In this document: piece after piece, positions 4,735 to 64,000 of the stretch
How the letters are laid out: every line of letters starts with the position of its first letter
How positions within the stretch are numbered: the stretch's first letter is position 1
Origin: Escherichia coli
GTDB lineage: Bacteria > Pseudomonadota > Gammaproteobacteria > Enterobacterales > Enterobacteriaceae
Assembly: GCF_016026235.1 (NCBI RefSeq)
Contig: NZ_CP065613.1
Length of the DNA stretch: 64,000 nt
Strand: one strand, 5' to 3'
The notes under the pieces: generated by a model
The model's input: only the letters and a program-made list of their open reading frames with translations
Database searches by the model: none
What the model was told of the DNA's origin: nothing
Made by a program: the position numbers and the translations under genes

Positions 4735-5568
<834 letters not shown>

Positions 5569-5569
5569 A

Positions 5570-6226
<657 letters not shown>

Positions 6227-17448: not shown

Positions 17449-18675
17449 TTATCCTTTTACGCACACCACCTGACGCAGGGTGTAGATAACTTCCACCAGA
17501 TCGCTTTGTGCCGCCATCACCGCATCAATATCTTTATACGCCATCGGGATTTCGTCGATCACTTCGGCATCTTTACGGCATTCCACATGCGCGGTAGCAC
17601 GAATTTGATCTTCCACGCTGAACAGTTTTTTCGCTTTAGTACGGCTCATTACCCGCCCGGCACCGTGGCTGCACGAACAGAACGACTCTTCATTTCCCAG
17701 CCCACGGACGATAAAGCTTTTTGCTCCCATCGAACCGGGAATAATTCCATATTGACCAGCACGCGCAGACACCGCGCCTTTACGCGTCACGTAGATCTCT
17801 TCACCAAAGTGCTGTTCTTTTTGCACATAGTTGTGGTGACAGTTGATCTCTTCCATCGCCAGCGTTTGTGGCTGTCTGACCGTTTTCTGCGTAATGCTCT
17901 GCAACGCCGTTACCACGTTTTCCATCATCGCATCGCGGTTAAGGCTGGCGAAAAGCTGCGCCCAGGCCACGGCTCTTAGGTAATCATCAAAGTATTCCGT
18001 ACCTTCCATAAAGTACGCCAGGTCGCGCGATGGCAACGTTTCAAGCTGGTCCTGCATCTCTTTTTGTGCCAAATCGATAAAGTAAGTCCCGATGGCGTTA
18101 CCAATTCCGCGTGAACCGGAGTGCAGCATAATCCACACCTGGTCCGACTCATCAAGGCAGATTTCAATAAAGTGGTTACCCGTTCCCAGCGTTCCCAGGT
18201 GTTTATAGTTGTTAGTGTTAAGGAAACGCGGATATTTTTGCGTTAACCACTGATAACCGGCTTCAAGCTCAGCCCATTTCGCATCGACGTTAACAGGCGG
18301 GTTTTCCCATGCGCCTTTATCACGTTTACAACGGCCAGTGGTACGTCCGTGCGGCACCGCAGTTTCAATCGCCTGACGCAGCTCTGCCAGGTTTTCAGGC
18401 AGGTCTGCCGCCGTTAACGCGGTACGCAGCGCGTTCATTCCACAGCCAATATCCACGCCCACCGCCGCCGGAATAATCGCCCCTTTGGTCGGGATCACGC
18501 TACCAATGGTGGAACCTTTACCCAGGTGTACATCAGGCATTACCGCAATATGTTTGAAAATAAACGGCATCTTCGCCGTATTAATAAGTTGCTGACGCGC
18601 ATCGGCTTCTACCGGCACGCCTTTGGTCCACATTTTTACCGGGGCATTTTCAATGGTCAGTAATTCGTAATTCAT
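17449..18675 (-). CDS. rtcB: RNA-splicing ligase RtcB
   Basis: ORF 17449..18717; start placed at MNYELLTIENAPVKMW giving 408 aa; RtcB family. Confidence 0.9.
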   Translation of the reverse strand: MNYELLTIENAPVKMWTKGVPVEADARQQLINTAKMPFIFKHIAVMPDVHLGKGSTIGSVIPTKGAIIPAAVGVDIGCGMNALRTALTAADLPENLAELRQAIETAVPHGRTTGRCKRDKGAWENPPVNVDAKWAELEAGYQWLTQKYPRFLNTNNYKHLGTLGTGNHFIEICLDESDQVWIMLHSGSRGIGNAIGTYFIDLAQKEMQDQLETLPSRDLAYFMEGTEYFDDYLRAVAWAQLFASLNRDAMMENVVTALQSITQKTVRQPQTLAMEEINCHHNYVQKEQHFGEEIYVTRKGAVSARAGQYGIIPGSMGAKSFIVRGLGNEESFCSCSHGAGRVMSRTKAKKLFSVEDQIRATAHVECRKDAEVIDEIPMAYKDIDAVMAAQSDLVEVIYTLRQVVCVKG

Positions 18676-18711
18676 TTTGTTTTTCTCTTTCGTTGTTTGC
18701 TGTCGTGATAA

Positions 18712-18729
18712 TTGCAACCGTCGTGCCAG
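18712..18729 (-). promoter_or_regulatory. Sigma-54 (-24/-12) promoter of rtcBA
   Basis: Minus strand reads CTGGCACGACGGTTGCAA, a near-perfect TGGCAC-N5-TTGCA element about 37 nt upstream of the rtcB start; divergent rtcR encodes the sigma-54 activator. Confidence 0.8.
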
Positions 18730-18862
18730 AAAATTAAATAAGCAGATTAATTTTTTAATTCATTGTTTTTAAATAGGTTAAATCTTTACGTCCGTAAACG
18801 GAGATTTTCCACAAAACCAATTCACCGATAATGAAATATCGTCTTTTATAAGGATATCTAAG

Positions 18863-20461
18863 ATGCGTAAAACAGTGGCTTTTGGCTTTGTCGGAACGGT
18901 GCTGGATTATGCCGGGCGCGGCAGTCAGCGCTGGTCGAAATGGCGTCCGACACTCTGTTTATGCCAGCAAGAATCGTTGGTCATCGATCGACTGGAATTA
19001 TTGCATGACGCCCGCTCGCGCTCGCTATTTGAAACGCTTAAACGCGATATCGCCAGCGTTTCGCCAGAAACAGAAGTGGTGAGCGTTGAGATTGAACTGC
19101 ATAACCCGTGGGATTTCGAAGAGGTTTACGCTTGCCTGCATGATTTCGCCCGTGGTTACGAGTTTCAGCCAGAAAAAGAAGACTATTTAATTCACATTAC
19201 CACCGGCACCCACGTCGCGCAGATTTGCTGGTTTCTGCTGGCGGAAGCGCGTTACCTGCCCGCCCGGCTGATACAATCTTCACCTCCGCGCAAAAAAGAA
19301 CAGCCGCGCGGCGCAGGTGAAGTGACGATTATCGATCTCGATTTAAGCCGTTATAACGCCATCGCCAGCCGCTTTGCCGAGGAACGCCAGCAAACGCTTG
19401 ATTTTCTTAAGTCCGGCATTGCCACGCGTAACCCCCACTTCAACCGCATGATTGAGCAGATCGAAAAAGTGGCGATCAAATCCCGCGCGCCGATTCTGCT
19501 TAACGGTCCAACCGGCGCGGGCAAGTCATTTCTGGCGCGACGCATCTTCGAGTTAAAACAGGCGCGGCATCAGTTTAGCGGCGCGTTTGTGGAAGTGAAC
19601 TGCGCCACCCTGCGCGGCGATACCGCCATGTCGACGCTGTTTGGTCATGTAAAAGGCGCGTTTACCGGGGCGCGGGAATCTCGTGAAGGTTTATTACGCA
19701 GCGCCAACGGCGGAATGTTGTTTCTTGATGAGATTGGCGAACTGGGCGCAGACGAACAGGCAATGCTGCTTAAAGCCATTGAAGAAAAAACCTTTTATCC
19801 GTTTGGCGGCGATCGCCAGGTGAGCAGTGATTTTCAGCTTATCGCCGGAACGGTGCGTGATTTGCGCCAGCTGGTTGCCGAAGGAAAATTTCGCGAAGAC
19901 CTGTACGCGCGGATCAATCTCTGGACCTTCACCCTGCCGGGGCTGCGCCAGCGCCAGGAAGATATTGAACCTAACCTGGATTATGAAGTGGAGCGCCACG
20001 CCTCACTCACTGGCGACAGCGTGCGTTTTAACACCGAAGCGCGGCGTGCCTGGCTGGCCTTTGCGACATCTCCCCAGGCAACATGGCGCGGTAACTTTCG
20101 CGAGCTTTCTGCCAGCGTCACGCGGATGGCTACCTTTGCCACTAGCGGACGCATCACTCTGGACGTGGTTGAAGATGAGATAAACCGTCTGCGCTATAAC
20201 TGGCAGGAGAGTCGCCCCTCCGCGCTTACGCAGCTACTGGGCGCAGAGGCAGAAAACATCGATCTCTTCGACCGTATGCAACTGGAACACGTTATCGCTA
20301 TCTGCCGCCAGGCAAAGTCGCTTTCCGCAGCCGGACGCCAGCTTTTTGACGTTTCGCGCCAGGGCAAAGCCAGCGTCAATGACGCGGATCGGCTACGCAA
20401 ATACCTGGCGCGTTTTGGTCTGACGTGGGAAGCATTGCAGGATCAGCACAGCTCCAGTTGA
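18863..20461 (+). CDS. rtcR: Sigma-54-dependent transcriptional activator RtcR (N-terminal CARF-like sensor, AAA+ domain)
   Basis: 532 aa; AAA+ sigma-54 interaction region with GAFTGA-type loop (VKGAFTGA). Confidence 0.9.
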
Positions 20462-21201
20462 ATATGGTGGTCCGTCAGCACCTGCATCACGCTTACTGGC
20501 GGCGGGGCGTCGGTGTAGACGGCATCTACCATGCTGATGCTGCCCATATTGACCATCGCGTTACGGCCAAATTTCGAGTGATCGACAACCAGCATAACGT
20601 GGCGCGAGTTCTCAATAATGGCGCGTTTGGTGCGAACTTCGTGGTAATCGAACTCCAGCAGCGAGCCGTCGCTATCGATGCCGCTTATCCCCAGAATGCC
20701 GAAATCAAGGCGGAACTGGGAGATAAAATCGAGCGTCGCTTCGCCAATGATCCCGCCATCGCGGCTGCGTAATTCGCCACCGGCGAGAATAATACGGAAA
20801 TCCTATTTTACCATCAGCGTGTTAGCAACGTTAAGATTGTTGGTGACAATGCGCAAATTGCTGTGATTGAGCAGCGCGTGCGCCACCGCTTCCGGCGTGG
20901 TGCCGATATCGATAAACAGCGTCGAGCCATTGGGGATTTGCTCCGCCACTTTGCGGGCGATGCGCTCTTTTTCTTCGGTCTGGGTGGCTTTACGATCGTG
21001 CCACGGCGTGTTAACCGAACTGGAAGGCAGCGCCGCACCGCCATGATGGCGCAGGATCAGGTTTTGCTCCGCCAGCTCATTGAGGTCGCGGCGAATAGTC
21101 TGCGGGCTGACGGAGAAGTGCTCCACCAGCTCCTCGGTACTGACATAACCCTGCTGTTTAACCAGTTCGATAATACCGTTGTGACGTTGTGTTTGTTTCA
21201 T
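20443..21201 (-). pseudogene. glpR: glp regulon repressor GlpR (DeoR family) interrupted by an in-frame TAG at 20803..20805
   Basis: N-terminal 132 codons (MKQTQRHNGIIELVKQQGY...NTLMVK) end at TAG; the same frame continues DFRIILAGGELRSRDGG...HHIQLELC to the natural stop at 20443..20445. Confidence 0.8.
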
Positions 21202-21217
21202 TTCTAAATCCCTGGAA

Positions 21218-22060
<843 letters not shown>

Positions 22061-22092
22061 TTATTCCACACAAAAGGGGACAGTATAAAGCG

Positions 22093-22608
<516 letters not shown>

Positions 22609-24114
22609 ATGGAAACCAAAGATCTGATTGTGATAGGTGGCGGCATCAATGGTGCTGGTATCGCGGCAGACGCCGCTGGACGCGGTTTATCCGTGCTGAT
22701 GCTGGAGGCGCAGGATCTCGCTTGCGCGACCTCTTCCGCCAGTTCAAAACTCATTCACGGTGGCCTGCGCTACCTTGAGCACTATGAATTCCGCCTGGTC
22801 AGCGAGGCGCTGGCTGAACGTGAAGTGCTGCTGAAAATGGCCCCGCATATCGCCTTCCCGATGCGTTTTCGCCTGCCACATCGTCCGCATCTGCGCCCGG
22901 CGTGGATGATTCGCATTGGTCTGTTTATGTACGATCATCTGGGTAAACGCACCAGCCTGCCGGGATCAACTGGTTTGCGTTTTGGCGCAAATTCAGTGTT
23001 AAAACCGGAAATTAAGCGCGGATTCGAATATTCCGACTGTTGGGTAGACGATGCCCGTCTGGTGCTCGCCAACACCCAGATGGTGGTGCGTAAAGGCGGC
23101 GAAGTGCTTACTCGTACTCGTGCTACTTCTGCTCGTCGCGAAAACGGCCTGTGGATTGTGGAAGCGGAAGATATCGATACCGGCAAAAAATATAGCTGGC
23201 AAGCGCGCGGCCTGGTTAACGCCACCGGCCCGTGGGTGAAACAGTTCTTCGACGACGGGATGCATCTGCCTTCGCCTTATGGCATTCGCCTGATCAAAGG
23301 CAGCCATATTGTGGTGCCGCGCGTGCATACCCAGAAGCAAGCCTACATTCTGCAAAACGAAGATAAACGTATTGTGTTCGTGATCCCGTGGATGGACGAG
23401 TTTTCCATCATCGGCACTACCGATGTCGAGTACAAAGGCGATCCGAAAGCGGTGAAGATTGAAGAGAGTGAAATCAATTACCTGCTGAATGTGTATAACA
23501 CGCACTTTAAAAAGCAGTTAAGCCGTGACGATATCGTCTGGACCTACTCCGGTGTGCGTCCGCTGTGTGATGATGAGTCCGACTCGCCGCAGGCTATTAC
23601 CCGTGATTACACCCTTGATATTCATGATGAAAATGGCAAAGCACCGCTGCTGTCGGTATTCGGCGGTAAGCTGACCACCTACCGAAAACTGGCGGAACAT
23701 GCGCTGGAAAAACTAACGCCGTATTATCAGGGTATTGGCCCGGCATGGACGAAAGAGAGCGTGCTACCGGGTGGCGCCATCGAGGGCGACCGCGACGATT
23801 ACGCAGCTCGTCTGCGCCGTCGCTATCCATTCCTGACTGAATCGCTGGCGCGTCATTACGCACGCACTTACGGCAGCAACAGCGAGCTGCTGCTCGGCAA
23901 TGCGGGGGCGATAAGCGACCTCGGGGAGGATTTCGGTCATGAGTTCTACGAAGCGGAACTGAAATACCTGGTGGATCACGAATGGGTCCGCCGCACCGAC
24001 GATGCCCTTTGGCGTCGCACAAAACAAGGCATGTGGCTGAATGCGGATCAACAATCTCGTGTGAGTCAGTGGCTGGTGGAATATACGCAGCAGAAGTTGT
24101 CGCTGGCGTCGTAA
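22609..24114 (+). CDS. glpD: Aerobic glycerol-3-phosphate dehydrogenase (FAD-dependent)
   Basis: ORF 22594..24114; start at METKDLIVIGGGINGAG (FAD-binding GxGxxG) giving 501 aa. Confidence 0.95.
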   Translation: METKDLIVIGGGINGAGIAADAAGRGLSVLMLEAQDLACATSSASSKLIHGGLRYLEHYEFRLVSEALAEREVLLKMAPHIAFPMRFRLPHRPHLRPAWMIRIGLFMYDHLGKRTSLPGSTGLRFGANSVLKPEIKRGFEYSDCWVDDARLVLANTQMVVRKGGEVLTRTRATSARRENGLWIVEAEDIDTGKKYSWQARGLVNATGPWVKQFFDDGMHLPSPYGIRLIKGSHIVVPRVHTQKQAYILQNEDKRIVFVIPWMDEFSIIGTTDVEYKGDPKAVKIEESEINYLLNVYNTHFKKQLSRDDIVWTYSGVRPLCDDESDSPQAITRDYTLDIHDENGKAPLLSVFGGKLTTYRKLAEHALEKLTPYYQGIGPAWTKESVLPGGAIEGDRDDYAARLRRRYPFLTESLARHYARTYGSNSELLLGNAGAISDLGEDFGHEFYEAELKYLVDHEWVRRTDDALWRRTKQGMWLNADQQSRVSQWLVEYTQQKLSLAS

Positions 24115-24121
24115 GGATGAT

Positions 24122-24150
24122 GCCCGGTTGAAGTGCAACCGGGCTATTTG
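24122..24150 (+). terminator. glpD Rho-independent terminator
   Basis: GCCCGGTTG-aagtg-CAACCGGGC stem followed by TATTT. Confidence 0.6.
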
Positions 24151-24165
24151 GATTCCTTAGACTAT

Positions 24166-24771
24166 TCATTGTAAATAATTGAATAACGGCCCCTGAGCTA
24201 AAATCGCCAAACTTAAGCACGTTACCCAATCGCCCCACTTCTTCCTCTGGTTTCTATTTTTTCTGCACCAATGGCAATAATATCCCAATGCAAAACCAAG
24301 CTGTGCACTAATCGGGCCGACAAAATCAGTCCAAGGCTGCGGCCAAAAAGGGGAAAAATTCAGGGGAGGCCAGACAAACGTCAGAAAGAAATTTCGGATA
24401 TTTTCCAGCAACGCTGATTTCTCTGGAGAAATATAAAGAATGAAATTCGAGAGAATTAACCAGAAATAGACCGGCGAAAAGACCAGCCAGCAATGCAGTC
24501 TGTTTTTTAATTCAGGAGGCGTTCTGCGGGAGAATTGCCAACCGATGCCAGCCATTACACTGAAAAAAAGTGCATATTCAACCATTAACTCAAGTTGTAA
24601 TTCCTGAAGAGAAATACGCACAACCAGGAGCGGAAAGGAGAATATTATTTCTGCCAGAAAAGTTAACGTGAATATAAGTACGGCTAAGACAATAACCGTC
24701 GGCCATACCAATAATGGCACGATAACAAAACCGAGAATTACAGGGGGAATATAAAGCCGGAATTTAATCAT
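24166..24771 (-). CDS. Small polytopic membrane protein (about 5 TM helices), unknown function; 4th gene of the accessory operon
   Basis: 201-aa ORF, strongly hydrophobic segments; start 2 nt after the upstream gene's stop. Confidence 0.6.
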   Translation of the reverse strand: MIKFRLYIPPVILGFVIVPLLVWPTVIVLAVLIFTLTFLAEIIFSFPLLVVRISLQELQLELMVEYALFFSVMAGIGWQFSRRTPPELKNRLHCWLVFSPVYFWLILSNFILYISPEKSALLENIRNFFLTFVWPPLNFSPFWPQPWTDFVGPISAQLGFALGYYCHWCRKNRNQRKKWGDWVTCLSLAILAQGPLFNYLQ

Positions 24772-27882: not shown

Positions 27883-29308
27883 TAATGCCAGTCAGTTAAG
27901 CAACTGACTGGCTCTTTTTCGGGGCTGTGGGGTATTTCCAGGGCCTCTCCTTTACCACTCTCGGGAAGGCCCTTCCCCTTCTCGTCGGTAATTTCACAAG
28001 TTGTCCCATACTTGCAAGATCGCGCATCAGCTCCGGTATACGTCCCGGTGAAGCGCCCTGCAATGTCATCAGCATTCTCATCACCATTCCGCATGATTCT
28101 GAGAAACTCAGTTGATTCGGCCAGTAACCTTTCAGATGTTCCGCCATTTTAATCATCTGATATCTCACCAGATTATAAGCCAGTAAGACACCCCACAGCT
28201 CTTGCTCCACAAGCTCCGGCTTTTTACTTCTCAGCGTCAGCCTGCTCAGTTGCATCGTCTGTTTTATCTCCCTGTATCCCAGTTCGATTTCCCAGCGATG
28301 ACTGTACAGATCCGCCATTTCTCCTCCGGGGAAGCGCATGGCGTCCGTCATCGACGTCAGCAGATGGCAGACTTTTCCTTTGCGCGTCACGGTCAGCAGG
28401 CGGGCTGTCACTTCATTTCCCAGTCCCGGCCACTTTTTTCGTGCCTGCGGGCTGGTTTTCAGCTTCACCAGATGATCGCCTTTACCCAGTTTTCTGAGCT
28501 CTTCATATTGCGCTCCCTTTCTGAGAGGTATCATCCAGTGGCGGTGTTCTCCCGCCAGGCTCCAGGCATTTAACAGTCCCAGTGAGTAATAACCTTTATC
28601 CATTAACGTCAGAGTGTTATCGCCGGTTTGTTCTATAAGTTGCTCAGCAAGCTCATTTTCGCTGTTCTTCATCGTGCCGAAGGCTGCAGCCGTCAGCAGA
28701 TGGCTGGTCAGTTCCATCTGGCAGACCATTTTGACCTGCGGGTAGAGCGCCGGGTTCCCGGCATGTGTCTGGCGGGGGAAGGCTGCATCGTTCTCTGGTG
28801 TATCCGGTGTGCGCCAGAACACACCATCGATGGCCAGCAGGGTCAGGCCGCACCAGTGCGGATGCGGCGTGGCGTTATGCCAGAGCTGCGCTGTTTTCGT
28901 GAACACGCGGCGGACAGCCTCACTTCCCAGGCGCTGGCGGGCCTGAATAACGGCACTGGGGGCAACGAAGGGGCGATTGCCCGGCAGCATGATGTCCAGG
29001 CGATTCACAATCTGGTGAAGAGGTTCTTTACGCTCAAGCGCCATGCCAACAATACACCAGACCATCATTTCGAGGGGAAGACGGCGCTTGCGTAGCGTTA
29101 CAGTACCTGATTCGGCAAGGCAACGAGAGATGAGTTCGGGGTCGAGGTAATCCCCCAGAGAAGTCAGTGGGTTACGCAGAGAATCGTAACGGGATACCAG
29201 ATCAAGAGCCTGTCCAATGTGCATAAAAAAATCCGGAAACAAGTGAGCGTTTCCGGATTCTTACACAGCCACTGGATCGGTCAACTGATCCTTAACTGAT
29301 CGGCATTA
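27883..29308 (-). mobile_element. IS4 insertion sequence (1426 bp) with imperfect terminal inverted repeats
   Basis: Termini TAATGCCAGTCAGTTAAG (27883) and the reverse complement of TAATGCCGATCAGTTAAGG (29308); single IS4-family DDE transposase ORF inside; flanked by a 12-bp direct repeat. Confidence 0.9.
27896..29224 (-). CDS. insG: IS4 transposase (DDE)
   Basis: ORF 27896..29242; 442 aa from [14 protein letters not shown], matching the IS4 transposase as I recall it. Confidence 0.85.
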
Positions 29309-29320
29309 GACCCTTTGGCC
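29309..29320. repeat. IS4 target-site duplication, copy 2 (GACCCTTTGGCC)
   Basis: Identical to 27871..27882. Confidence 0.85.
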
Positions 29321-29341
29321 CCGTTCTATTTATTGGTGAAA

Positions 29342-31807
<2,466 letters not shown>

Positions 31808-54802: not shown

Positions 54803-55243
54803 ATGAAACGACTTCTGATTCTTACGGCACTCCTGCCGTTTGTCGGCTTTGCACAGCCCATTAATACTCTGAACAACCCTAACCAGCCGGGGTATCAGAT
54901 CCCCAGTCAGCAGCGGATGCAAACCCAGATGCAGACGCAGCAAATCCAGCAAAAAGGGATGCTGAATCAGCAACTGAAAACGCAAACTCAGTTGCAACAA
55001 CAGCATTTAGAAAACCAGATAAACAATAATTCTCAGCGGGTGTTGCAGTCACCGCCGGGGGAGCGAAATCCCGCCCGGCAGCAAATGCTGCCCAACACCA
55101 ATGGCGGGATGTTAAACAGCAACCGTAATCCGGATAGTTCGTTGAATCAGCAGCATATGTTGCCGGAGAGGAGAAACGGCGACATGCTGAATCAGCCCGG
55201 CACGCCGCAGCCTGATATACCGTTGAAAACTATTGGGCCGTAA
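54803..55243 (+). CDS. yhhA: Gln/Asn-rich secreted protein YhhA
   Basis: 146 aa; signal peptide then Q/N-rich low-complexity sequence. Confidence 0.85.
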
Positions 55244-55973
55244 AGTTCGGACCAATCACATCAATCGCATCGGTACAGATGCAATCCACGCCCCAGCGCA
55301 GCAACTCTGCCGCGCGCTGGGGTTTATTGACGGTATAAACCAGAATCCGTAATCCGGCGTCTTTCAACTGCATCACTCGCGCTTTATCGAGCAACTTATG
55401 ATTGAGATGAATAGAGACGCAGCCCAGCCGCGCGGTCAGTTCTCGCCAGTCGTCGCGCCACTCATCCAGCAACAAACCGCGCGGCAGTTCTGGTACTGCC
55501 TGTTGTGCGGCTTCTAAAGCATCAATCTCAAACGATGACAGTAGCGGCGGCATCATACCGGCCCACAGCTCGCGTGCCGCCAGCGCCACCATTTTGCCCG
55601 TTAATGGCCCAGTGCCAGTGGTGGGTTTGATTTCGATATTCGCCATCATCCCATGTTCGCGACAGCGTTCCGCCACCTGCGAAAGCAACGGCAGCGGCTC
55701 ACCTTTAAACGCTTTGCCGTACCAACTGCCTGCATCCACACGTAGTAAATCCTGCCAGTTCAGTTCACCCGCGACGCCCCAGCCGTTGCTGGTACGTTCG
55801 AGATTGTCGTCATGGAGCAGGAAGATTTCGCCATCTTTCGACAACTTCGCGTCAAATTCGATCATCTTATGACCGTATTTTGCCCCGACGTCGATTGCCG
55901 CCAGGGTGTTTTCCGGGGCCAGCTTACCGCCGCCACGATGAGCGACGATGCGGGGATAAGGCCAGTTACTCAT
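55230..55973 (-). CDS. ugpQ: Cytoplasmic glycerophosphodiester phosphodiesterase
   Basis: 247 aa GDPD family; last gene of the ugp operon. Confidence 0.95.
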
Positions 55974-57040
55974 ACTCGTTGTCCTGTTTCACCATCAAAA
56001 AGATGCAGCTGATTTTCCGCCAGATGCAGCCACAGCGTGCTGCCTGCCGTCGGGCGCTCCTGATGCGCCAGTCGCACCACCAGCTTCTGTTCGCCCCAGC
56101 GTCCGTGCGCCAGGTTATCTGCGCCGAGGATCTCTAGCGTGTCCATCACCAGCGGTACGCCGCCTTCTGCCTGCGAGCTTAGCGCAATATGTTCCGGGCG
56201 AATGCCGAGAGTCATTTTACGCCCGGCATACTGACGGTAGCCACCGTTTAGCGGTAGCACGATACCGCCGTCCAGTTCGAAATGCGTGCCTTCGTTATTC
56301 ACGCGGCCTGTCAGCAGATTCATCGCCGGGCTGCCAATAAAACTCGCCACAAACAGGCTGGCGGGCTTTTCGTAGACTTCTACTGGTGTGCCAATCTGTT
56401 CGGCAACGCCGCCGTTCATCACCATTACTCGCTGGGCGAGGGTCATCGCCTCAACCTGATCGTGAGTAACGTAGAGTGATGTCGTTTTCAGGCGACGGTG
56501 CAGCTGTTGCAGTTCAAGACGCATCTGTACGCGCAGCTTGGCATCGAGGTTAGAGAGTGGCTCATCAAACAGGAACACCGCCGGATCGCGCACAATCGCG
56601 CGGCCCATCGCCACACGCTGGCGCTGACCGCCGGAAAGCTCGCGTGGGCGACGTTTGAGCAGGCCGTCCAGCTCCAGAATGCGCGCCGCTTCTTTAACGC
56701 GCTCGGCAATTTGCTGCTTGCCCATGCCGCGAATTTTCAGCCCCCACGCCATGTTTTCTTCGACGCTCATATGCGGATAAAGCGCGTAGTTCTGGAACAC
56801 CATCGCAATCCCGCGATCTTTCGGCTCCATTTCGGTCACCCGCTGGTCGTTGATCCAGATATCGCCTTCCGTCACCCGCTCCAGCCCGGCAACCATGCGC
56901 AGCAGCGTCGATTTCCCGCAGCCAGACGGCCCGACCATCACGATAAATTCGCCATCCGCCACATCAAGGGTCAGCGGTTTAATGACCTGGGTTTTACCAT
57001 CCCAGCTTTTGGTTACTGCCTGTAATTTCAGTCCTGCCAT
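55970..57040 (-). CDS. ugpC: sn-glycerol-3-phosphate ABC transporter ATP-binding protein
   Basis: ORF 55970..57079; start at MAGLKLQAV giving 356 aa; Walker [10 protein letters not shown], signature LSGGQRQR. Confidence 0.95.
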
Positions 57041-57041
57041 C

Positions 57042-57887
57042 TTATTTCTCACTATCGACCAGGCCGCGCACGAAGGCACGCTGCATCACTAAAACAATCA
57101 CCACCGGAGGGATAAGCGTTAACAACATCGCCGCCATCACTGAGTTCCATTCCGTGGTGCCTTCGCCTGTAGCGATCATCCCTTTGATCCCTGCCACGGT
57201 GGTGCCGAGATCCACATCGGTAATAATCAACAACGGCCACAAATACTGGTTCCAGCCGTAAATAAAGGTGATCACAAACAGCGCCGCCAGATTGGTTTTG
57301 GAGAGCGGAAAAACGATGTCGCAAAAGAAACGCATTGGTGACGCGCCGTCGATCCGCGCCGCTTCCACCAGTTCATCCGGCAGCGTCATAAAGAACTGGC
57401 GAAACAGAAACGTGGCGGTCGCCGAGGCCATCAGCGGCAGCGTTAAACCGGCGTAGCTGTCGAGCATCTTCAGGTTGGCGATGACTTCCACCGTCGGGAA
57501 GATACGTACTTCAATCGGCAGCATCAGGGTGATAAAAATCATCCAGAAGAAGAGGTTACGTAGCGGAAAACGAAACCAGACAATGGCAAATGCCGAGAGC
57601 ATCGAGACGGTAATTTTGCCGAGCGTAATGCTGAACGCCATCACAAAGCTGTTAAGCAACATCTGCCAGAACGGCGCGCTATTCGTGCCTACCCCGTTTA
57701 CCCAGATGTTGTGGATGTTTTCCAGCAGATGCGTGCCGGGGATTAGCGTCATCGGCGCGGCGTAGACGGCTTGTTTATCCAGCGTCGCCGCGACAAACGC
57801 CACGTACAGCGGGAAGAGGATCACCGCGATCCCGAGGATCAGCATGGTATGGCTGAATATTGTCAGCCACGGACGGTTTTCAATCAT
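57042..57887 (-). CDS. ugpE: sn-glycerol-3-phosphate ABC transporter permease
   Basis: 281-aa polytopic permease. Confidence 0.95.
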
Positions 57888-58771
57888 TGGTAACGCACCT
57901 TGCTTTCAACATAGCGGAACTGCACCACCGTCAGCACGATGACGAGGAACATCAACACCACCGACTGTGCGGCAGACGAAGCCAGATCCAGTCCGGTAAA
58001 GCCTTCGCGGTAGATCTTATAAATCAGCGTCGTGGTGGCCTGAACCGGCCCGCCGGACGTGGCGGCGTCGATCACCGGGAAGGTGTCGAAGAAGGCATAC
58101 ACCAGGTTCACTACCAGCAGGAAGAAACTCACCGGGGCGATAAGCGGCAGCGCAATCTTAAAGAAGCGGCGAATCGGCCCTGCACCGTCGATGGCTGCGG
58201 CTTCGATCAACGAACGGGGAATGGATTGCAGCGCGGCATAGAAGAACAGGAAGTTGTAGCTGATTTGCTTCCATACTGAGGCAAACACCACCAGAAACAT
58301 TGCCTGACCGCTGTTTTGCGCGTGGTTCCAGTCGTAGCCGAACTCAGCGAGAAAATGGGTGATCAGCCCGCGACCGGGGTTAAACAGGAAGATCCACAAT
58401 ACGGCGGCAACGGCGGGAGCCACGGCATACGGCAGCAGCATCAAGGTTTGATAGAAACGACTGCCGCGCACGATGTACTCCACCAGCGCCGCAAAGAACA
58501 GCGATACCAGCAAACCGCTGACGGTGACAAAGGTGCTGAATTTTATCGTCGTCCAGAAGGAGTCGATATAGTAGCTGTCATGAAACAGCGCGACGAAGTT
58601 ATCCAGGCCGACAAACTGGCTGGAGAAACCAAACGGATCGACGCTTTGCAGCGAGTACCACAACGCTTCGCCCGCAGGCCAGATAAAAAAGATAACGGTG
58701 ATGATGAGCTGCGGCGCGACCAGCAGATAAGGCAGCCAGCGCGAGCGGAACACCGGACGGGATGATGACAT
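57884..58771 (-). CDS. ugpA: sn-glycerol-3-phosphate ABC transporter permease
   Basis: 295-aa polytopic permease; 4-nt overlap with ugpE. Confidence 0.95.
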
Positions 58772-58868
58772 TACGGTTAATTCCTGAACTGTGCCGAATG
58801 CGCTTCGCTTATCCGGCCTACACGCGATGCCAGGTCAGATAAGCGAAACGCATCCGACATTACACTGA

Positions 58869-60186
58869 TTAAGACTTCGTCGATTTCTCAAAGCGGCGCA
58901 GCAACTGATTTCCACGCTCAACGGCGGTATCCAGTGCCTGCTGTGGTGTCTTCTTACCGGTCCACACGCTCTCCAGCTCTTCATCCACAATCACGCGGAT
59001 CTGCGGCATGTTGCCCAGACGCAGTCCTTTGGTGAACGGCAACGGCGGCTTATTCAGCATCTGACGCGTCGCGGTATCCGCCCCTGGGTTTTTCTCATAA
59101 AAGCCCTGCTCACGGGTCAGGTCATACGCTGCTTTGGTGATTGGCAGATAACCGGTTTTCTGATGCCACTCGGCAGCGTTTTCTGGCTTCGCGAGGAAGT
59201 CGAGGAACTTCGCCACGCCGGTATACGTTTCTTTATCTTTGCCCTGCATCACCCACAGGCTGGCCCCGCCGATAATGGCGTTTTGCGGTGCATCTTTCGC
59301 ATCGGCGTCGTAAGGCATCATGCCTACGCCATAGTTAAATTTGGCGTACTCACGAATATTAGCGAGAGAACCGGAAGAGGCGGTGGTCATCGCGCAATCA
59401 CCGTTATAGAACTTCTCGGTGGATTCATCCTTACGCCCGACGTAGCTGAAATCGCCCTTCTTGTTCATCTCTTCGAGCATGGCGATGTGTTTCACCTGCT
59501 CCGGCTTGTTGAACTCCAGCACCGCATCCGTGCCGTCAAAGCCGTTGTTTTTGCTGGCAAACGGCAGACCGTTCCAGGCGCTAAAGTTTTCCAGTTGGAT
59601 CCAGCCCTGCCAGCCGCTGGCGTAGCCGCACTTCATACCGGAGGCTTTCAGTTTTGCAGAATAGTCCGCCAGATCCTGCCAGGTTTTCGGCGGCTGTTCC
59701 GGGTCTAATCCTGCTTTCTTGAAGGCGTCTTTGTTGTAATAGAGAACGGGGGTCGAGCTGTTGAATGGCTGGGAGAGTAAGTGGCCCGTTTTGCTGTCGG
59801 AGTAGTAACCGGAAACCGTCGGCACAAACTGCGACTCATCGAATTGAATCCCCGCCTCTTTAAACACGTCATATACCGGTTTAATGGCTTTCGACGCCAT
59901 CATGGTGGCGGTGCCAACTTCATAAACCTGCAAAATAGCCGGAGCATTGCCGGTACGAAATGCGGCAATCCCCGCGCTTAAATTCTGTTCGTAGTTGCCT
60001 TTATAGGTCGGTACAATTTTGTAATCCGGGTTTTCGGCGTTAAAACGTTGGGCCAGAGAATCCACCTCTTTACCCAGTTCCCCTTCCATAGAATGCCAGA
60101 ACGGAATGGTCGTCACTGCCTGTGCATTCCCCATTAACGCCAGTCCGAGCGCCAGTGCTGAAGCTGTATAATGTATACGGTTTCAT
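58869..60186 (-). pseudogene. ugpB: sn-glycerol-3-phosphate periplasmic binding protein UgpB with apparent +1 frameshift in codons 4-5 (signal-peptide region)
   Basis: Mature-protein ORF (58869..60134) begins [14 protein letters not shown]; the native-type ATG at 60186..60184 (MKP...) is 52 nt upstream, not a multiple of 3; signal-peptide residues (I)[13 protein letters not shown] are encoded in the mature frame but preceded by TGA; the ATG frame ends after about 37 codons. Confidence 0.75.
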
Positions 60187-60279
60187 CGTTTATCTCTCTT
60201 GTTGTACCGAATGCGCGAATTCACGCGTTTTATGCTCGCGGGGTAACATGACATGCTCGAATTACAGAAAAATAACTTT

Positions 60280-60330
60280 TTTGTTACATTTGTAAGATAG
60301 TAAGGTGTCAGAAAGATGACAAGGCGGTGA
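60280..60330 (-). promoter_or_regulatory. ugp promoter region with Pho-box-like repeat (TTGTCATCTTTCTGACAC)
   Basis: Minus-strand 7-4-7 motif close to the PhoB box consensus CTGTCAT-N4-CTGTCAC upstream of ugpB. Confidence 0.5.
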
Positions 60331-60545
60331 CGGTACGGGTGAGGGAAAATGGGAGATGGGGCACGGATATCCCGAGAATGCACTGAAAAGAGGCGATTAA
60401 CGGCCAGCTAATCGCCAGAACTCCTTACCATGAAGAGCAAAAATGGCAGCAAATTCTGCGTCCAGTTTTGCTGCCCGATGAGAGCTACATTTTTCAATTT
60501 TAACAAAAGATTGCCGCGACACTGGTCTAACGGCAAAGAAGATTT

Positions 60546-61292
60546 TCATTGCACCACACTCTGCTTCAGCCGTTCATTGGCGGTCTTAATCCATTCCCGG
60601 TGGTGTTTTCTATAATGAGGTCTTGAGCGTTTAGCCGTATCAACTACAGCAACATACTGCTCGTTGGCTTCACGTAACCGACTCATTTTCGCCAACATTT
60701 CCGCATAGTAAATACGCGCCTGCGGGCCGGGGTAATAAGAAATCAATACTTCAAACTCGCTTTCCGCATCAGCGTATTTTTCTTGTGCGGCTAACGTTCT
60801 GGCAAATAACAAATGCCCGTCTGCCGACTGAAAATCAGGGTTATAACGCATCACATCTTCCAGCGTCTGCTGACAGGCGGCGAACTCCTGAATAGCAAAC
60901 TGTGCCTGCGCCAGGCTTAGCATCATTGCCGCTTCATGGGCGAATATCCCGCTTAACGCCTGCTGATAATGGGGAACAGCTTCGTGATAACGCCCCAGAC
61001 GCGCCAGTTCATTAGCCAACGCATAATGGTTTTGATTCGTCTCGGCAATCGCCAGTTCTTCGGTTAATTTGCGCAGGTGGCGCTCAGGGTTGAGTTTGTC
61101 CTGCAGGCGCATCAGCAAAGTATGCCCGTGACGGTCAGCGCCCGTTTCAGGCAGCATCACTATGACGAAATACGCCACGCAGCCAATCACCGGAAAACAG
61201 AAAATGATAAAAATCCAGTACCGCTCTTGTCCGGTACGGTAAGCGTGAATACAGCAAAGCAGTTCAAGCATGACAACAACGGCATAATGCAT
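60546..61292 (-). CDS. Hypothetical protein: N-terminal two-helix membrane anchor followed by TPR-like helical repeats
   Basis: 248-aa ORF; hydrophobic N-terminus (VVVMLELLCC...IFIIFCFPVIGCVAYFVIVML), then helical repeat region (YHEAVPHYQQAL, YADAESEFEVLISYY, AEMLAKMS); typical E. coli codon usage. Confidence 0.5.
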   Translation of the reverse strand: MHYAVVVMLELLCCIHAYRTGQERYWIFIIFCFPVIGCVAYFVIVMLPETGADRHGHTLLMRLQDKLNPERHLRKLTEELAIAETNQNHYALANELARLGRYHEAVPHYQQALSGIFAHEAAMMLSLAQAQFAIQEFAACQQTLEDVMRYNPDFQSADGHLLFARTLAAQEKYADAESEFEVLISYYPGPQARIYYAEMLAKMSRLREANEQYVAVVDTAKRSRPHYRKHHREWIKTANERLKQSVVQ

Positions 61293-61410
61293 GGGAGGGA
61301 ACCTTTCCGTGGCAAATAAGTGGTCTGGTTTTAATCCTCCCGGTCAGTTGAAACAAGTCTGTATACGGACGAATACCCCGGCAGAACTTAGCTGCTGGGT
61401 TATCGATAAT

Positions 61411-62124
61411 TTACCCGCCTAAATACGCACTTCTCACTGCTTCGTTCGCCAGCAGCGCATCACCAGTATCGGAGAGCACAACATGGCCGTTTTCCAGCAC
61501 GTAGCCGCGATCAGCGAGCTTCAGCGCCTGGTTGGCGTTCTGCTCGACGAGGAAGATAGTCATCCCCTGCTCGCGCAGCTGCTCGATGGTGTCGAAAATT
61601 TGCTGGATGATAATCGGCGCAAGACCGAGCGATGGCTCATCAAGCAACAACAAACGCGGATTGCTCATCAGCGCGCGACCAATCGCCAGCATCTGCTGTT
61701 CACCGCCGGACATGGTGCCTGCCCGCTGAACACGACGCTCATGAAGACGTGGAAACAGCTCATACACCCACTTTATGCGCTCCTGAAACTGATCACGTTC
61801 GGCAAAAAAGCCGCCCATCGCCAGGTTCTCTTCCACCGTCATCCGCGAGAAGACGCGACGCCCTTCCGGGACAATCGCTACCGCTTCGCGCATGATTCTC
61901 GCCGTCTGCCAGTCGGTAATGTCTTTATCATCAAACACAATTCGCCCGCTGGTGGCGCGCGGATCGCCGCATAACGTGCCGAGCAAGGTGGTTTTCCCCG
62001 CCCCGTTCGCGCCAATCAGCGTGACAATCTCGCCCTGATTGATATGCAGGCTCACCTCATGCAGCGCCTGGATTTTGCCGTAGTGGGCGCTGACTTTGTC
62101 AAAGGACAACATGACTTTTTCCAT
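61411..62124 (-). CDS. livF: Branched-chain amino acid ABC transporter ATP-binding protein
   Basis: ORF 61411..62136; start at MEKVMLSFDKV giving 237 aa; Walker A GANGAGKTT. Confidence 0.95.
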   Translation of the reverse strand: MEKVMLSFDKVSAHYGKIQALHEVSLHINQGEIVTLIGANGAGKTTLLGTLCGDPRATSGRIVFDDKDITDWQTARIMREAVAIVPEGRRVFSRMTVEENLAMGGFFAERDQFQERIKWVYELFPRLHERRVQRAGTMSGGEQQMLAIGRALMSNPRLLLLDEPSLGLAPIIIQQIFDTIEQLREQGMTIFLVEQNANQALKLADRGYVLENGHVVLSDTGDALLANEAVRSAYLGG

Positions 62125-62125
62125 C

Positions 62126-62893
62126 TTATGCTTCACCTAAATAGGCACGGATCACGTCCGGGTTATTACGGATTTGCTCCGGCGTACCGTTTGCCAGCGG
62201 CGTCCCCTGATTGACCACGTAAATTCGGTCCGAAATTCCCATCACCAGCTTCATATCGTGTTCAATCAACAAGATAGTGGTGTTGTGATGATTGCGCAGT
62301 TCGGCAATCAGCTCATCCAGCTCTTTCGTTTCTTTCGGGTTAAGACCTGCCGCAGGTTCGTCGAGCATTAAAATCTCCGGCTGCGTCACCATGCAGCGGG
62401 CGATCTCCAGACGGCGCTGGTCACCGTAGGCCAGGTTGCTCGCCTGGCGGTTGGCGTGTTCCAGCAAACCAATGCGCTCAAGCCAGGTGGCGGCGCGGTC
62501 GAGCGCTTCACTTTGGGCGCGACGGAAAGACGGCGTTTTCAACAGGCCTGAGAACAGCCCGGTTTTCAGTTGCTGATGCTGCGCCACCAGCAGGTTTTCA
62601 ATTACCGTCATTTCACGGAACAGACGCACATGCTGGAAGGTACGCACCACGCCCATGCGGGCGATTTGCTGCCCCGGCAAACCCTCCAGATGCTGATCGC
62701 GCAGTAAAATAGTGCCGCCGGTGGGTTTGTAGAATCCGGTCAGGCAGTTGAAGACCGTCGTTTTTCCGGCACCGTTAGGGCCGATTAACGAGACGATCTC
62801 CTGCGGGTACAGTTCGAGATTGACGTTGTTCACCGCCAGCAGGCCGCCGAAGCGCATCATCAGGCCGTTAACAGATAATAATGGCTGACTCAT
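62126..62893 (-). CDS. livG: Branched-chain amino acid ABC transporter ATP-binding protein
   Basis: 255 aa; Walker [10 protein letters not shown]. Confidence 0.95.
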
Positions 62894-64000
62894 GCCTGCT
62901 CTCCTTTCGCTGCGCCGTTTTTCAGCTTCAGTTGCGGGCGCGTCATGGGCAGCAAGCCCTGCGGACGCCAGATCATCATCAGCACCATCAAACCACCGAG
63001 CATTAACATGCTGTATTCGTTGAAATCACGCATCAATTCGCGCGATACCACCAGCAAAATTGCCGCCAGAATCACCGCAAACTGCGATCCCATACCGCCG
63101 AGCACCACTATCGCCAGTACAAAGGCTGATTCGGCAAAGGTGAAGGATTCCGGGCTGACAAAGCCCTGGCGCGCAGCAAACAGCGTTCCGGCAAAACCGG
63201 CAAACGCGGCACTGATGGTAAAAGCGGTCAGCTTGATACGACGCGGGCTTAAGCCCAGCGAACGGCAGGCGATCTCATCTTCACGCAACGCTTCCCACGC
63301 ACGCCCCAGCGGCATCCGCAGCAGGCGGTTAATGACAAACAGGCTTAGTACCACCAGCAGCAACGCCACCAGATACAGGAAGATGACGCGATCGGAGGGA
63401 TCGTATTTCAGGCCAAAGAAATTACTGAACGTGTCCCAACCGCCTTCACGGGCGGTACGGCTGAACTCAAGGCCGAAGAAAGTCGGTTTCGGGATCTGAC
63501 TGATTCCGTTCGGGCCGCCGGTAATTTCGGTGTTATTGAGCAGCAATATGCGCACAATCTCGCCGAAGCCGAGGGTAACGATCGCCAGATAATCACCACG
63601 CAGACGCAGCACCGGAAAGCCGAGCAGGAAGCCCGCCGCCGCTGCCATTAACCCGGCAATCGGCAGACAAGTCCAGAAGCCCAAGCCGTAATAGTGATTG
63701 AGCAGCGCAAAGGTGTAAGCGCCGATGGCGTAAAAACCGCCGTACCCCAGCACCAGCAGACCAGAAAGACCAACAACCACATTCAGCCCGAGACCGAGGA
63801 TAATGTAGATCATGGTCAGAGTGGCGATATCCACCGTCCCACGTGACACCATAAACGGCCACGCCACCGCAAGCACCAGCAGCGCCACGAGGAACAGTTT
63901 CTGCTTCACCGTGGACCCATCAATCGCAGGCAGAATAAACTTCGGCCTGGAAACGCTTTTTAGCCCTTTCTGGAAAGCAGGTCGCAAAAGCTGGAAGAAA
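62890..64000 (-). CDS. livM: Branched-chain amino acid ABC transporter permease (5' end beyond window)
   Basis: Polytopic permease frame open to the window edge; 4-nt overlap with livG. Confidence 0.9.

Follow-up and report, generated by a model that had tools for sequence, protein, structure and literature searches.

Whether a frameshifted gene in a genome sequence represents a true mutation, an error, or a gene that is still expressed by some unusual route is a recurrent problem of annotation, and it is posed by the ugpB locus of the Escherichia coli DNA studied here (contig NZ_CP065613.1; the window, i.e., the whole 64,000-nucleotide stretch that was analysed). UgpB is the periplasmic binding protein for sn-glycerol-3-phosphate (G3P) and is reported to have chaperone activity, and K-12 ugpB mutants are sensitive to bile (PMC8144458). 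A previous sequence-only reading of the locus attributed the break in the ugpB reading frame to one extra nucleotide among the signal-peptide codons, but held a sequencing or assembly error to be equally possible. We conclude, with a probability of about 0.88, that a +1 frameshift caused by an A inserted at codon 4 is real, recent and inherited, and that in a rare lineage of E. coli it has turned ugpB into a pseudogene.

Materials and Methods

The whole window was compared gene by gene with the annotations of outgroup genomes. The distribution of the ugpB allele was assessed in 5,426 complete RefSeq E. coli genomes, a set that does not include the window's own genome. Logan run-level assemblies were used as an indirect proxy for raw reads.

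Results

With a score of 941 bits (cut-off, 411), the gene matched the UgpB equivalog profile NCBIfam NF008211, query residues 1–434 being aligned to profile positions 6–439 of 439, and it also matched both structures solved for E. coli UgpB, 4AQ4 and 6X84; because the mature chain in these structures starts with VTTIPF, signal-peptide cleavage can be placed after ...NAQA. The gene order (livG, livF, a TPR gene, ugpB, ugpA, ugpE, ugpC, ugpQ, yhhA, ggt) is that annotated in K-12, FDAARGOS_943, A30 and ES5, with ugpB downstream of livF as the first gene of ugpBAECQ. By synteny this is the locus of K-12 ugpB (UniProt P0AG80; PDB 4AQ4), which likewise heads the Pho-regulated ugpBAECQ operon, and the mature part of the protein differs from that of K-12 by one A-to-S substitution, which is common to the frequent allele WP_000803204.1. 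The four downstream genes, ugpA, ugpE, ugpC and ugpQ, are all full length, in agreement with the earlier description of them as intact (Table 1).

At the 5′ end of ugpB the gene strand, which is the minus strand, reads ...GAGAGATAAACG ATG AAA CCG TAT ACA TTA TAC AGC TTC AGC... Alignment with the closest genome, K-12 and outgroups showed that CCGTTACATTATAC has become CCGTATACATTATAC through a single extra base at 60176, which changes CCG TTA CAT TAT to CCG TAT ACA TTA T from codon 4 onward; the proposal that one additional nucleotide within CCGTATACATTATAC accounts for both reading frames was thereby borne out. K-12, FDAARGOS_943, A30, ES5, NCTC10444 and SCU-316 all have one base fewer at this point and an unshifted gene; without the extra base the site would read CCGTTACATT, and the wild-type sequence is TTACATTATACAG. 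The position of the insertion is unambiguous, since removal of any other base of GTATAC fails to give GTTAC, and the site is not a homopolymer. Apart from the gap, there is no difference from K-12 in the 161 bp that begin 74 bp 5′ of the ATG and reach to codon 29, which means that neither the Shine-Dalgarno region nor the proximal promoter has changed.

Compared with K-12 ugpB, the extra A parts the start codon and first three codons from the remainder of the gene. Translation of both frames confirmed that the ATG of MKP... (60186..60184) is out of frame with the mature UgpB open reading frame (ORF), reproduced exactly the 38 residues and stop reported for the ATG frame (60186..60070), and, when begun at 60185, recovered the signal-peptide residues in the mature frame behind a TGA. 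This TGA overlaps the ATG and closes the UgpB frame on its 5′ side, and no ATG, GTG or TTG precedes Met18 in that frame, which is otherwise open (60185..58869) as far as the normal C-terminus, RRFEKSTKS, whose stop codon ends at 58869. By tblastn, residues 4–438 are intact in a single frame with 99.5% identity to reference UgpB. As codons 1–3 and codons 4–438 lie in different frames, the locus does not encode a precursor in which an N-terminal Sec signal peptide precedes the mature domain. Because the start codon is out of frame and the UgpB frame is closed by the TGA, the locus is a ugpB pseudogene and not a functional member of the family; because the remaining 435 codons carry no second lesion, the insertion appears to be recent.

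Table 1. Coordinates of features discussed in the text (positions in the window)
Feature	Position	Strand	Basis or remark
Native ugpB start codon, ATG	60184..60186	-	Shine-Dalgarno region just upstream; 74 bp upstream as in K-12
Inserted base, codon 4	60176..60176	-	A on gene strand, T on + strand
Out-of-frame 38-codon ORF from native start (MKPYTLYSF...GTG, then stop)	60070..60186	-	Translation; stop at 60072..60070
Rest of ugpB, codons 4–438 and stop, in the other frame	58869..60176	-	No second lesion; matches NF008211 and PDB 4AQ4
Signal-peptide codons H5–A23, severed from start codon	60117..60173	-	Translation; cleavage site between 60117 and 60116
Met18 ATG, first canonical in-frame start	60132..60134	-	Gene callers: 421-aa product without export signal
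ugpA, 295 aa, intact	57884..58771	-	tblastn and translation; without gaps or stops
ugpE, 281 aa, intact	57042..57887	-	tblastn; without gaps or stops
ugpC, 356 aa, intact	55970..57040	-	tblastn; without gaps or stops
ugpQ, 247 aa, intact	55230..55973	-	tblastn; without gaps or stops
glpR with nonsense codon 133 of 252 (GAG to TAG at 20803–20805)	20443..21201	-	Window-specific; intact in FDAARGOS_943

The inserted A was present in none of the 5,426 complete RefSeq genomes, the best matches to a 161-bp query being 160/161 with one gap. In a sample spread down the whole match ranking, every match spanning a longer, 1,392-base query had 1,391 bases, and the ugpB frame is unshifted in all 5,422 complete genomes that have the gene. 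An exact-pattern scan for the mutant allele gave no match in GTDB species representatives or JGI metagenome contigs, and the 38-aa out-of-frame peptide was not on record in a protein look-up. The closest complete genome, with 99.9% identity, is FDAARGOS_943 (NZ_CP065615.1), whose ugpB (WP_000803204.1) is intact. Over ∼62 kb, the differences between the window and FDAARGOS_943 comprise 33 SNPs, three insertion sequences (an IS4, an IS2 and one of the IS5 family), a duplication of 123 bp and two 1-bp indels; of the latter, only the one in ugpB is derived in the window. As judged from these alignments, the ugpB insertion is derived and lineage-specific.

The 421-aa product that would start at Met18 is recorded on 25 public contigs among NCBI and Logan assemblies, the longest of 5.07 Mb; it is indexed in 37 blocks of a protein collection, and its NCBI protein records include EFK2886764.1, EFK6632532.1, EFK6688786.1 and EGK2810765.1. 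One independent contig, DABDTE010000005.1 (GCA_012807895.1), is 100% identical to window positions 55869–63134 (7,266 bp), insertion included, and also shares the window-specific SNPs at 61396 and 62132. The same lesion is found, in other words, in independent assemblies of related isolates, as it would be in an inherited pseudogene.

Besides ugpB, just two disruptive changes were found in the window, a stop at codon 9 of gntX and a nonsense codon in glpR. The glpR change (E133stop) is corroborated by an independent Logan contig (run ERR3372598), which matches window positions 17803–24201 (6.4 kb) with 100% identity. In other, unrelated public contigs, codon 133 of glpR is TAA, so that a nonsense change recurs there; this TAA allele was absent from every complete RefSeq genome.

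A second contig, AAWOED010000002.1 (GCA_014942585.1), has the same inserted A in ugpB and, over 7,266 positions, 122 differences from the window. When it was compared with NCTC10444 and SCU-316, in which ugpB is intact, only the inserted A and two private ugpA SNPs differed. Because this contig matches its own lineage save for those changes, the same insertion probably arose twice, independently, on two E. coli backgrounds. Recombination as the source of the base in AAWOED010000002.1 is disfavoured by the 122 differences from the window and the near-identity to its own lineage; the two backgrounds are identical across window positions 59800–61079, so a conversion tract of <1.28 kb is possible.

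Discussion

Several readings of this locus other than a recent, inherited pseudogene have to be weighed. If the extra base were an artefact, the true genome would have an intact ugpB, and the absence of the allele from the complete genomes, the GTDB representatives and the JGI metagenome contigs is what such an error would predict. However, an identical allele is present in 25 contigs, in at least 4 NCBI protein records and in Logan run-level assemblies, one independent contig agrees with the window at every position over 7.3 kb and confirms its SNPs at 61396 and 62132, the site has no homopolymer run, and comparison with the closest relative over ∼62 kb reveals no further private indel of the window. 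The insertion is thus very unlikely to be a sequencing or assembly error, and the even odds given to error by the sequence-only reading can no longer be maintained.

A real insertion might nonetheless leave some function. Near-cognate start codons are generally of very low efficiency, and in ABC importers a binding protein located in the cytoplasm cannot serve the transporter. One way to retain low-level function would be +1 ribosomal frameshifting near codons 3–5, or initiation at a near-cognate codon of the UgpB frame (the ATA at 60178..60176, or a CTG), either of which would yield some exportable precursor; the pristine state of the remaining ORF and the presence of the ATA in the correct frame 8 nt 3′ of the native ATG are in its favour. 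However, a recent mutation equally predicts an intact downstream ORF, no known +1 recoding signal is present, the inefficiency of near-cognate starts applies here as well, the n-region of the signal peptide would be without its Lys in a product begun at the ATA, and the sister strain and all other genomes have the normal frame, so that we regard such residual expression as highly improbable. A programmed +1 frameshift of the prfB kind was considered and rejected: the gene is unshifted in all 5,422 genomes that have it, and neither an internal Shine-Dalgarno sequence nor an in-frame stop occurs at the shift site.

There is similarly only a slight chance that internal initiation at Met18 or Met32 provides a UgpB without signal that stays in the cytoplasm and there retains some role or has gained a new one, even though the ORF is intact and the 421-aa product is called UgpB by gene callers as well as by PGAP. 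As had been anticipated, internal initiation would give a product without an export signal, for the Met18 product retains only MGNAQA of the 23-residue signal peptide, and from the Met32 product (60089) the beginning of the mature protein is missing as well. By a crude measure, the same for all sites, the duplex energy with the anti-Shine-Dalgarno sequence is −4.1 kcal/mol for Met18 and −1.5 kcal/mol for Met32 (native site, −4.7 kcal/mol), which is weak complementarity; Met18 and Met32 both lie inside the 38-codon ORF and would be passed over by ribosomes coming from the native start; and a binding protein confined to the cytoplasm would be useless to an importer of established ABC mechanism.

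With ugpB taken as an inherited pseudogene, the consequences for the Ugp system can be predicted. Ribosomes from the native ATG would translate 38 out-of-frame codons before terminating, no precursor with a functional signal peptide would be made, and any Met18 or Met32 product would be expected to stay in the cytoplasm. As no exportable precursor is expected, the UgpAEC importer would be left without its binding protein, and the Pho-regulated uptake of G3P and glycerophosphodiesters that depends on it is predicted to be lost, presumably together with the periplasmic, bile-responsive chaperone activity of UgpB. In addition, ribosomes would be largely absent from about 1.2 kb of the ugpB mRNA, and on the basis of what is known from K-12 the resulting Rho-dependent polarity would probably lower the expression of ugpAECQ.

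The glpR lesion bears on how such a loss would be seen. In K-12, GlpR represses glpTQ, glpD, glpFKX and glpABC. Loss of the C-terminal half of the repressor would be expected to lift the repression of the antiporter GlpT and of GlpQ, a diesterase of the periplasm, whose genes are located outside the window, and glpR E133stop therefore probably turns on the GlpT/GlpQ route. This route would be an alternative entry for the same substrates, which could make Ugp dispensable and possibly mask the phenotype of its loss. Neither the glpR nonsense mutation nor the likely polarity on ugpAEC was part of the sequence-only reading, the interpretation of which is to this extent incomplete, and because of both the growth test it proposed, on G3P as sole phosphate source in a strain without glpT activity, would show something different.

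The insertion resembles the single-base-frameshift pseudogenes of E. coli and Shigella lineages, which are due to a derived 1-nt indel found in one clade only, the ORF being otherwise intact, as are the neighbouring genes. When it is set against ordinary lineage-specific pseudogenes, its sole oddity is that the identical insertion is found once on an unrelated background. We found no paper on a ugpB pseudogene in E. coli, nor on this allele; in a clinical ST648 isolate from cystic fibrosis, the whole ugpBAEC operon is reported to be deleted. General understanding is unchanged by the present case, which is typical recent gene decay in one lineage and falls into an ordinary class of pseudogenes. 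For annotation, the locus should be labelled a ugpB pseudogene, and the 421-aa "UgpB" entries in public records (e.g., EFK2886764.1) are signal-less truncations and not functional binding proteins.

The apparent recurrence raises the possibility of a site prone to templated mutation, at which loss of Ugp is selected, and not merely tolerated, in strains with a derepressed Glp route. The insertion turns the imperfect tandem repeat TTACAT/TATACAG into the nearly perfect TATACAT/TATACAG, and such a repeat correction is the pattern expected of templated (transient) misalignment. The occurrence of the inserted A on two unrelated backgrounds and the combination of the ugpB frameshift with glpR E133stop in the window strain are consistent with the idea, as are two lesions that FDAARGOS_943 acquired independently, the ugpC duplication and a glpG amber codon. 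The combined proposal is nevertheless unlikely in our estimation, and one recurrence among hundreds of thousands of public E. coli assemblies is by itself no proof of a hot spot. A look-up of Met18-truncated products for the K-12/O157 UgpB allele yielded mutated start codons, a nonsense mutation, a deletion of 11 bp and some contig artefacts, with no inserted A at this site, and the more divergent allele WP_000803587.1 (strain R14) has a different inserted A, further 3′, before TTTAATG. In these look-ups the A at codon 4 was confined to the two backgrounds, and they are therefore all that the hot-spot idea has to draw on. The other natural lesions at the ugpB 5′ end, which occur in many unrelated E. 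coli assemblies (ATG to CTG, AGG or ATT; TTA to TAA at codon 17; the 11-bp deletion; the A before TTTAATG), share with the present one the calling of a 421-aa "UgpB" from Met18 and the predicted loss of the signal peptide.

The closest relative shows decay of its own. In FDAARGOS_943, ugpC (28888–30081 of the compared segment) contains a 123-bp in-frame tandem duplication, corresponding to about window positions 56320–56450, in which the 41 aa MTLAQRV...FIGSPA are repeated (397 vs. 356 aa), a probable independent lesion in the same operon. In this strain the amber codon of glpG, a gene that precedes glpR within their common operon, arose from a C to T change at a Dcm site (CCAGG to CTAGG), whereas the window allele is intact at 21919; amber codons formed by C to T changes at Dcm sites are of the classic 5-methylcytosine hot-spot type. 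In a post hoc comparison of few events, the parallel lesions in the Ugp and Glp systems suggest that selection on G3P scavenging may have been relaxed, or directional, in this lineage. Other decay events in FDAARGOS_943 are frameshifts in a RecQ-family gene and in livJ and, unlike in the window, an IS2 inside a PstS-family gene; this strain also has an IS5-family element between yrhB and ggt. Between glgP and the PstS-family gene the window has an IS4 (27883–29308), whose 12-bp overlap is a target duplication and which is absent from FDAARGOS_943. The gntX stop (gene on the + strand, 5543–6226; stop codon at 5567–5569) is common to the window and FDAARGOS_943, while strain E2863 has Trp at this codon, and PGAP annotates a shorter gntX protein from a downstream start at 5579.

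Finally, 29 of the 33 SNPs between the window and FDAARGOS_943 are C:G/T:A transitions (e.g., at window positions 577, 3011, 5796, 8006, 30064, 37092 and 61396), with T alleles on both branches. In eleven of these 29 the changed base is the second C of a CCNGG motif (CCSGG in most cases), against an expectation of ∼2% (binomial p ∼4 × 10−12). This pattern suggests that the lineage may possess a CCNGG- or CCGG-specific methyltransferase, creating hot spots of 5-methylcytosine deamination at sites outside Vsr repair.
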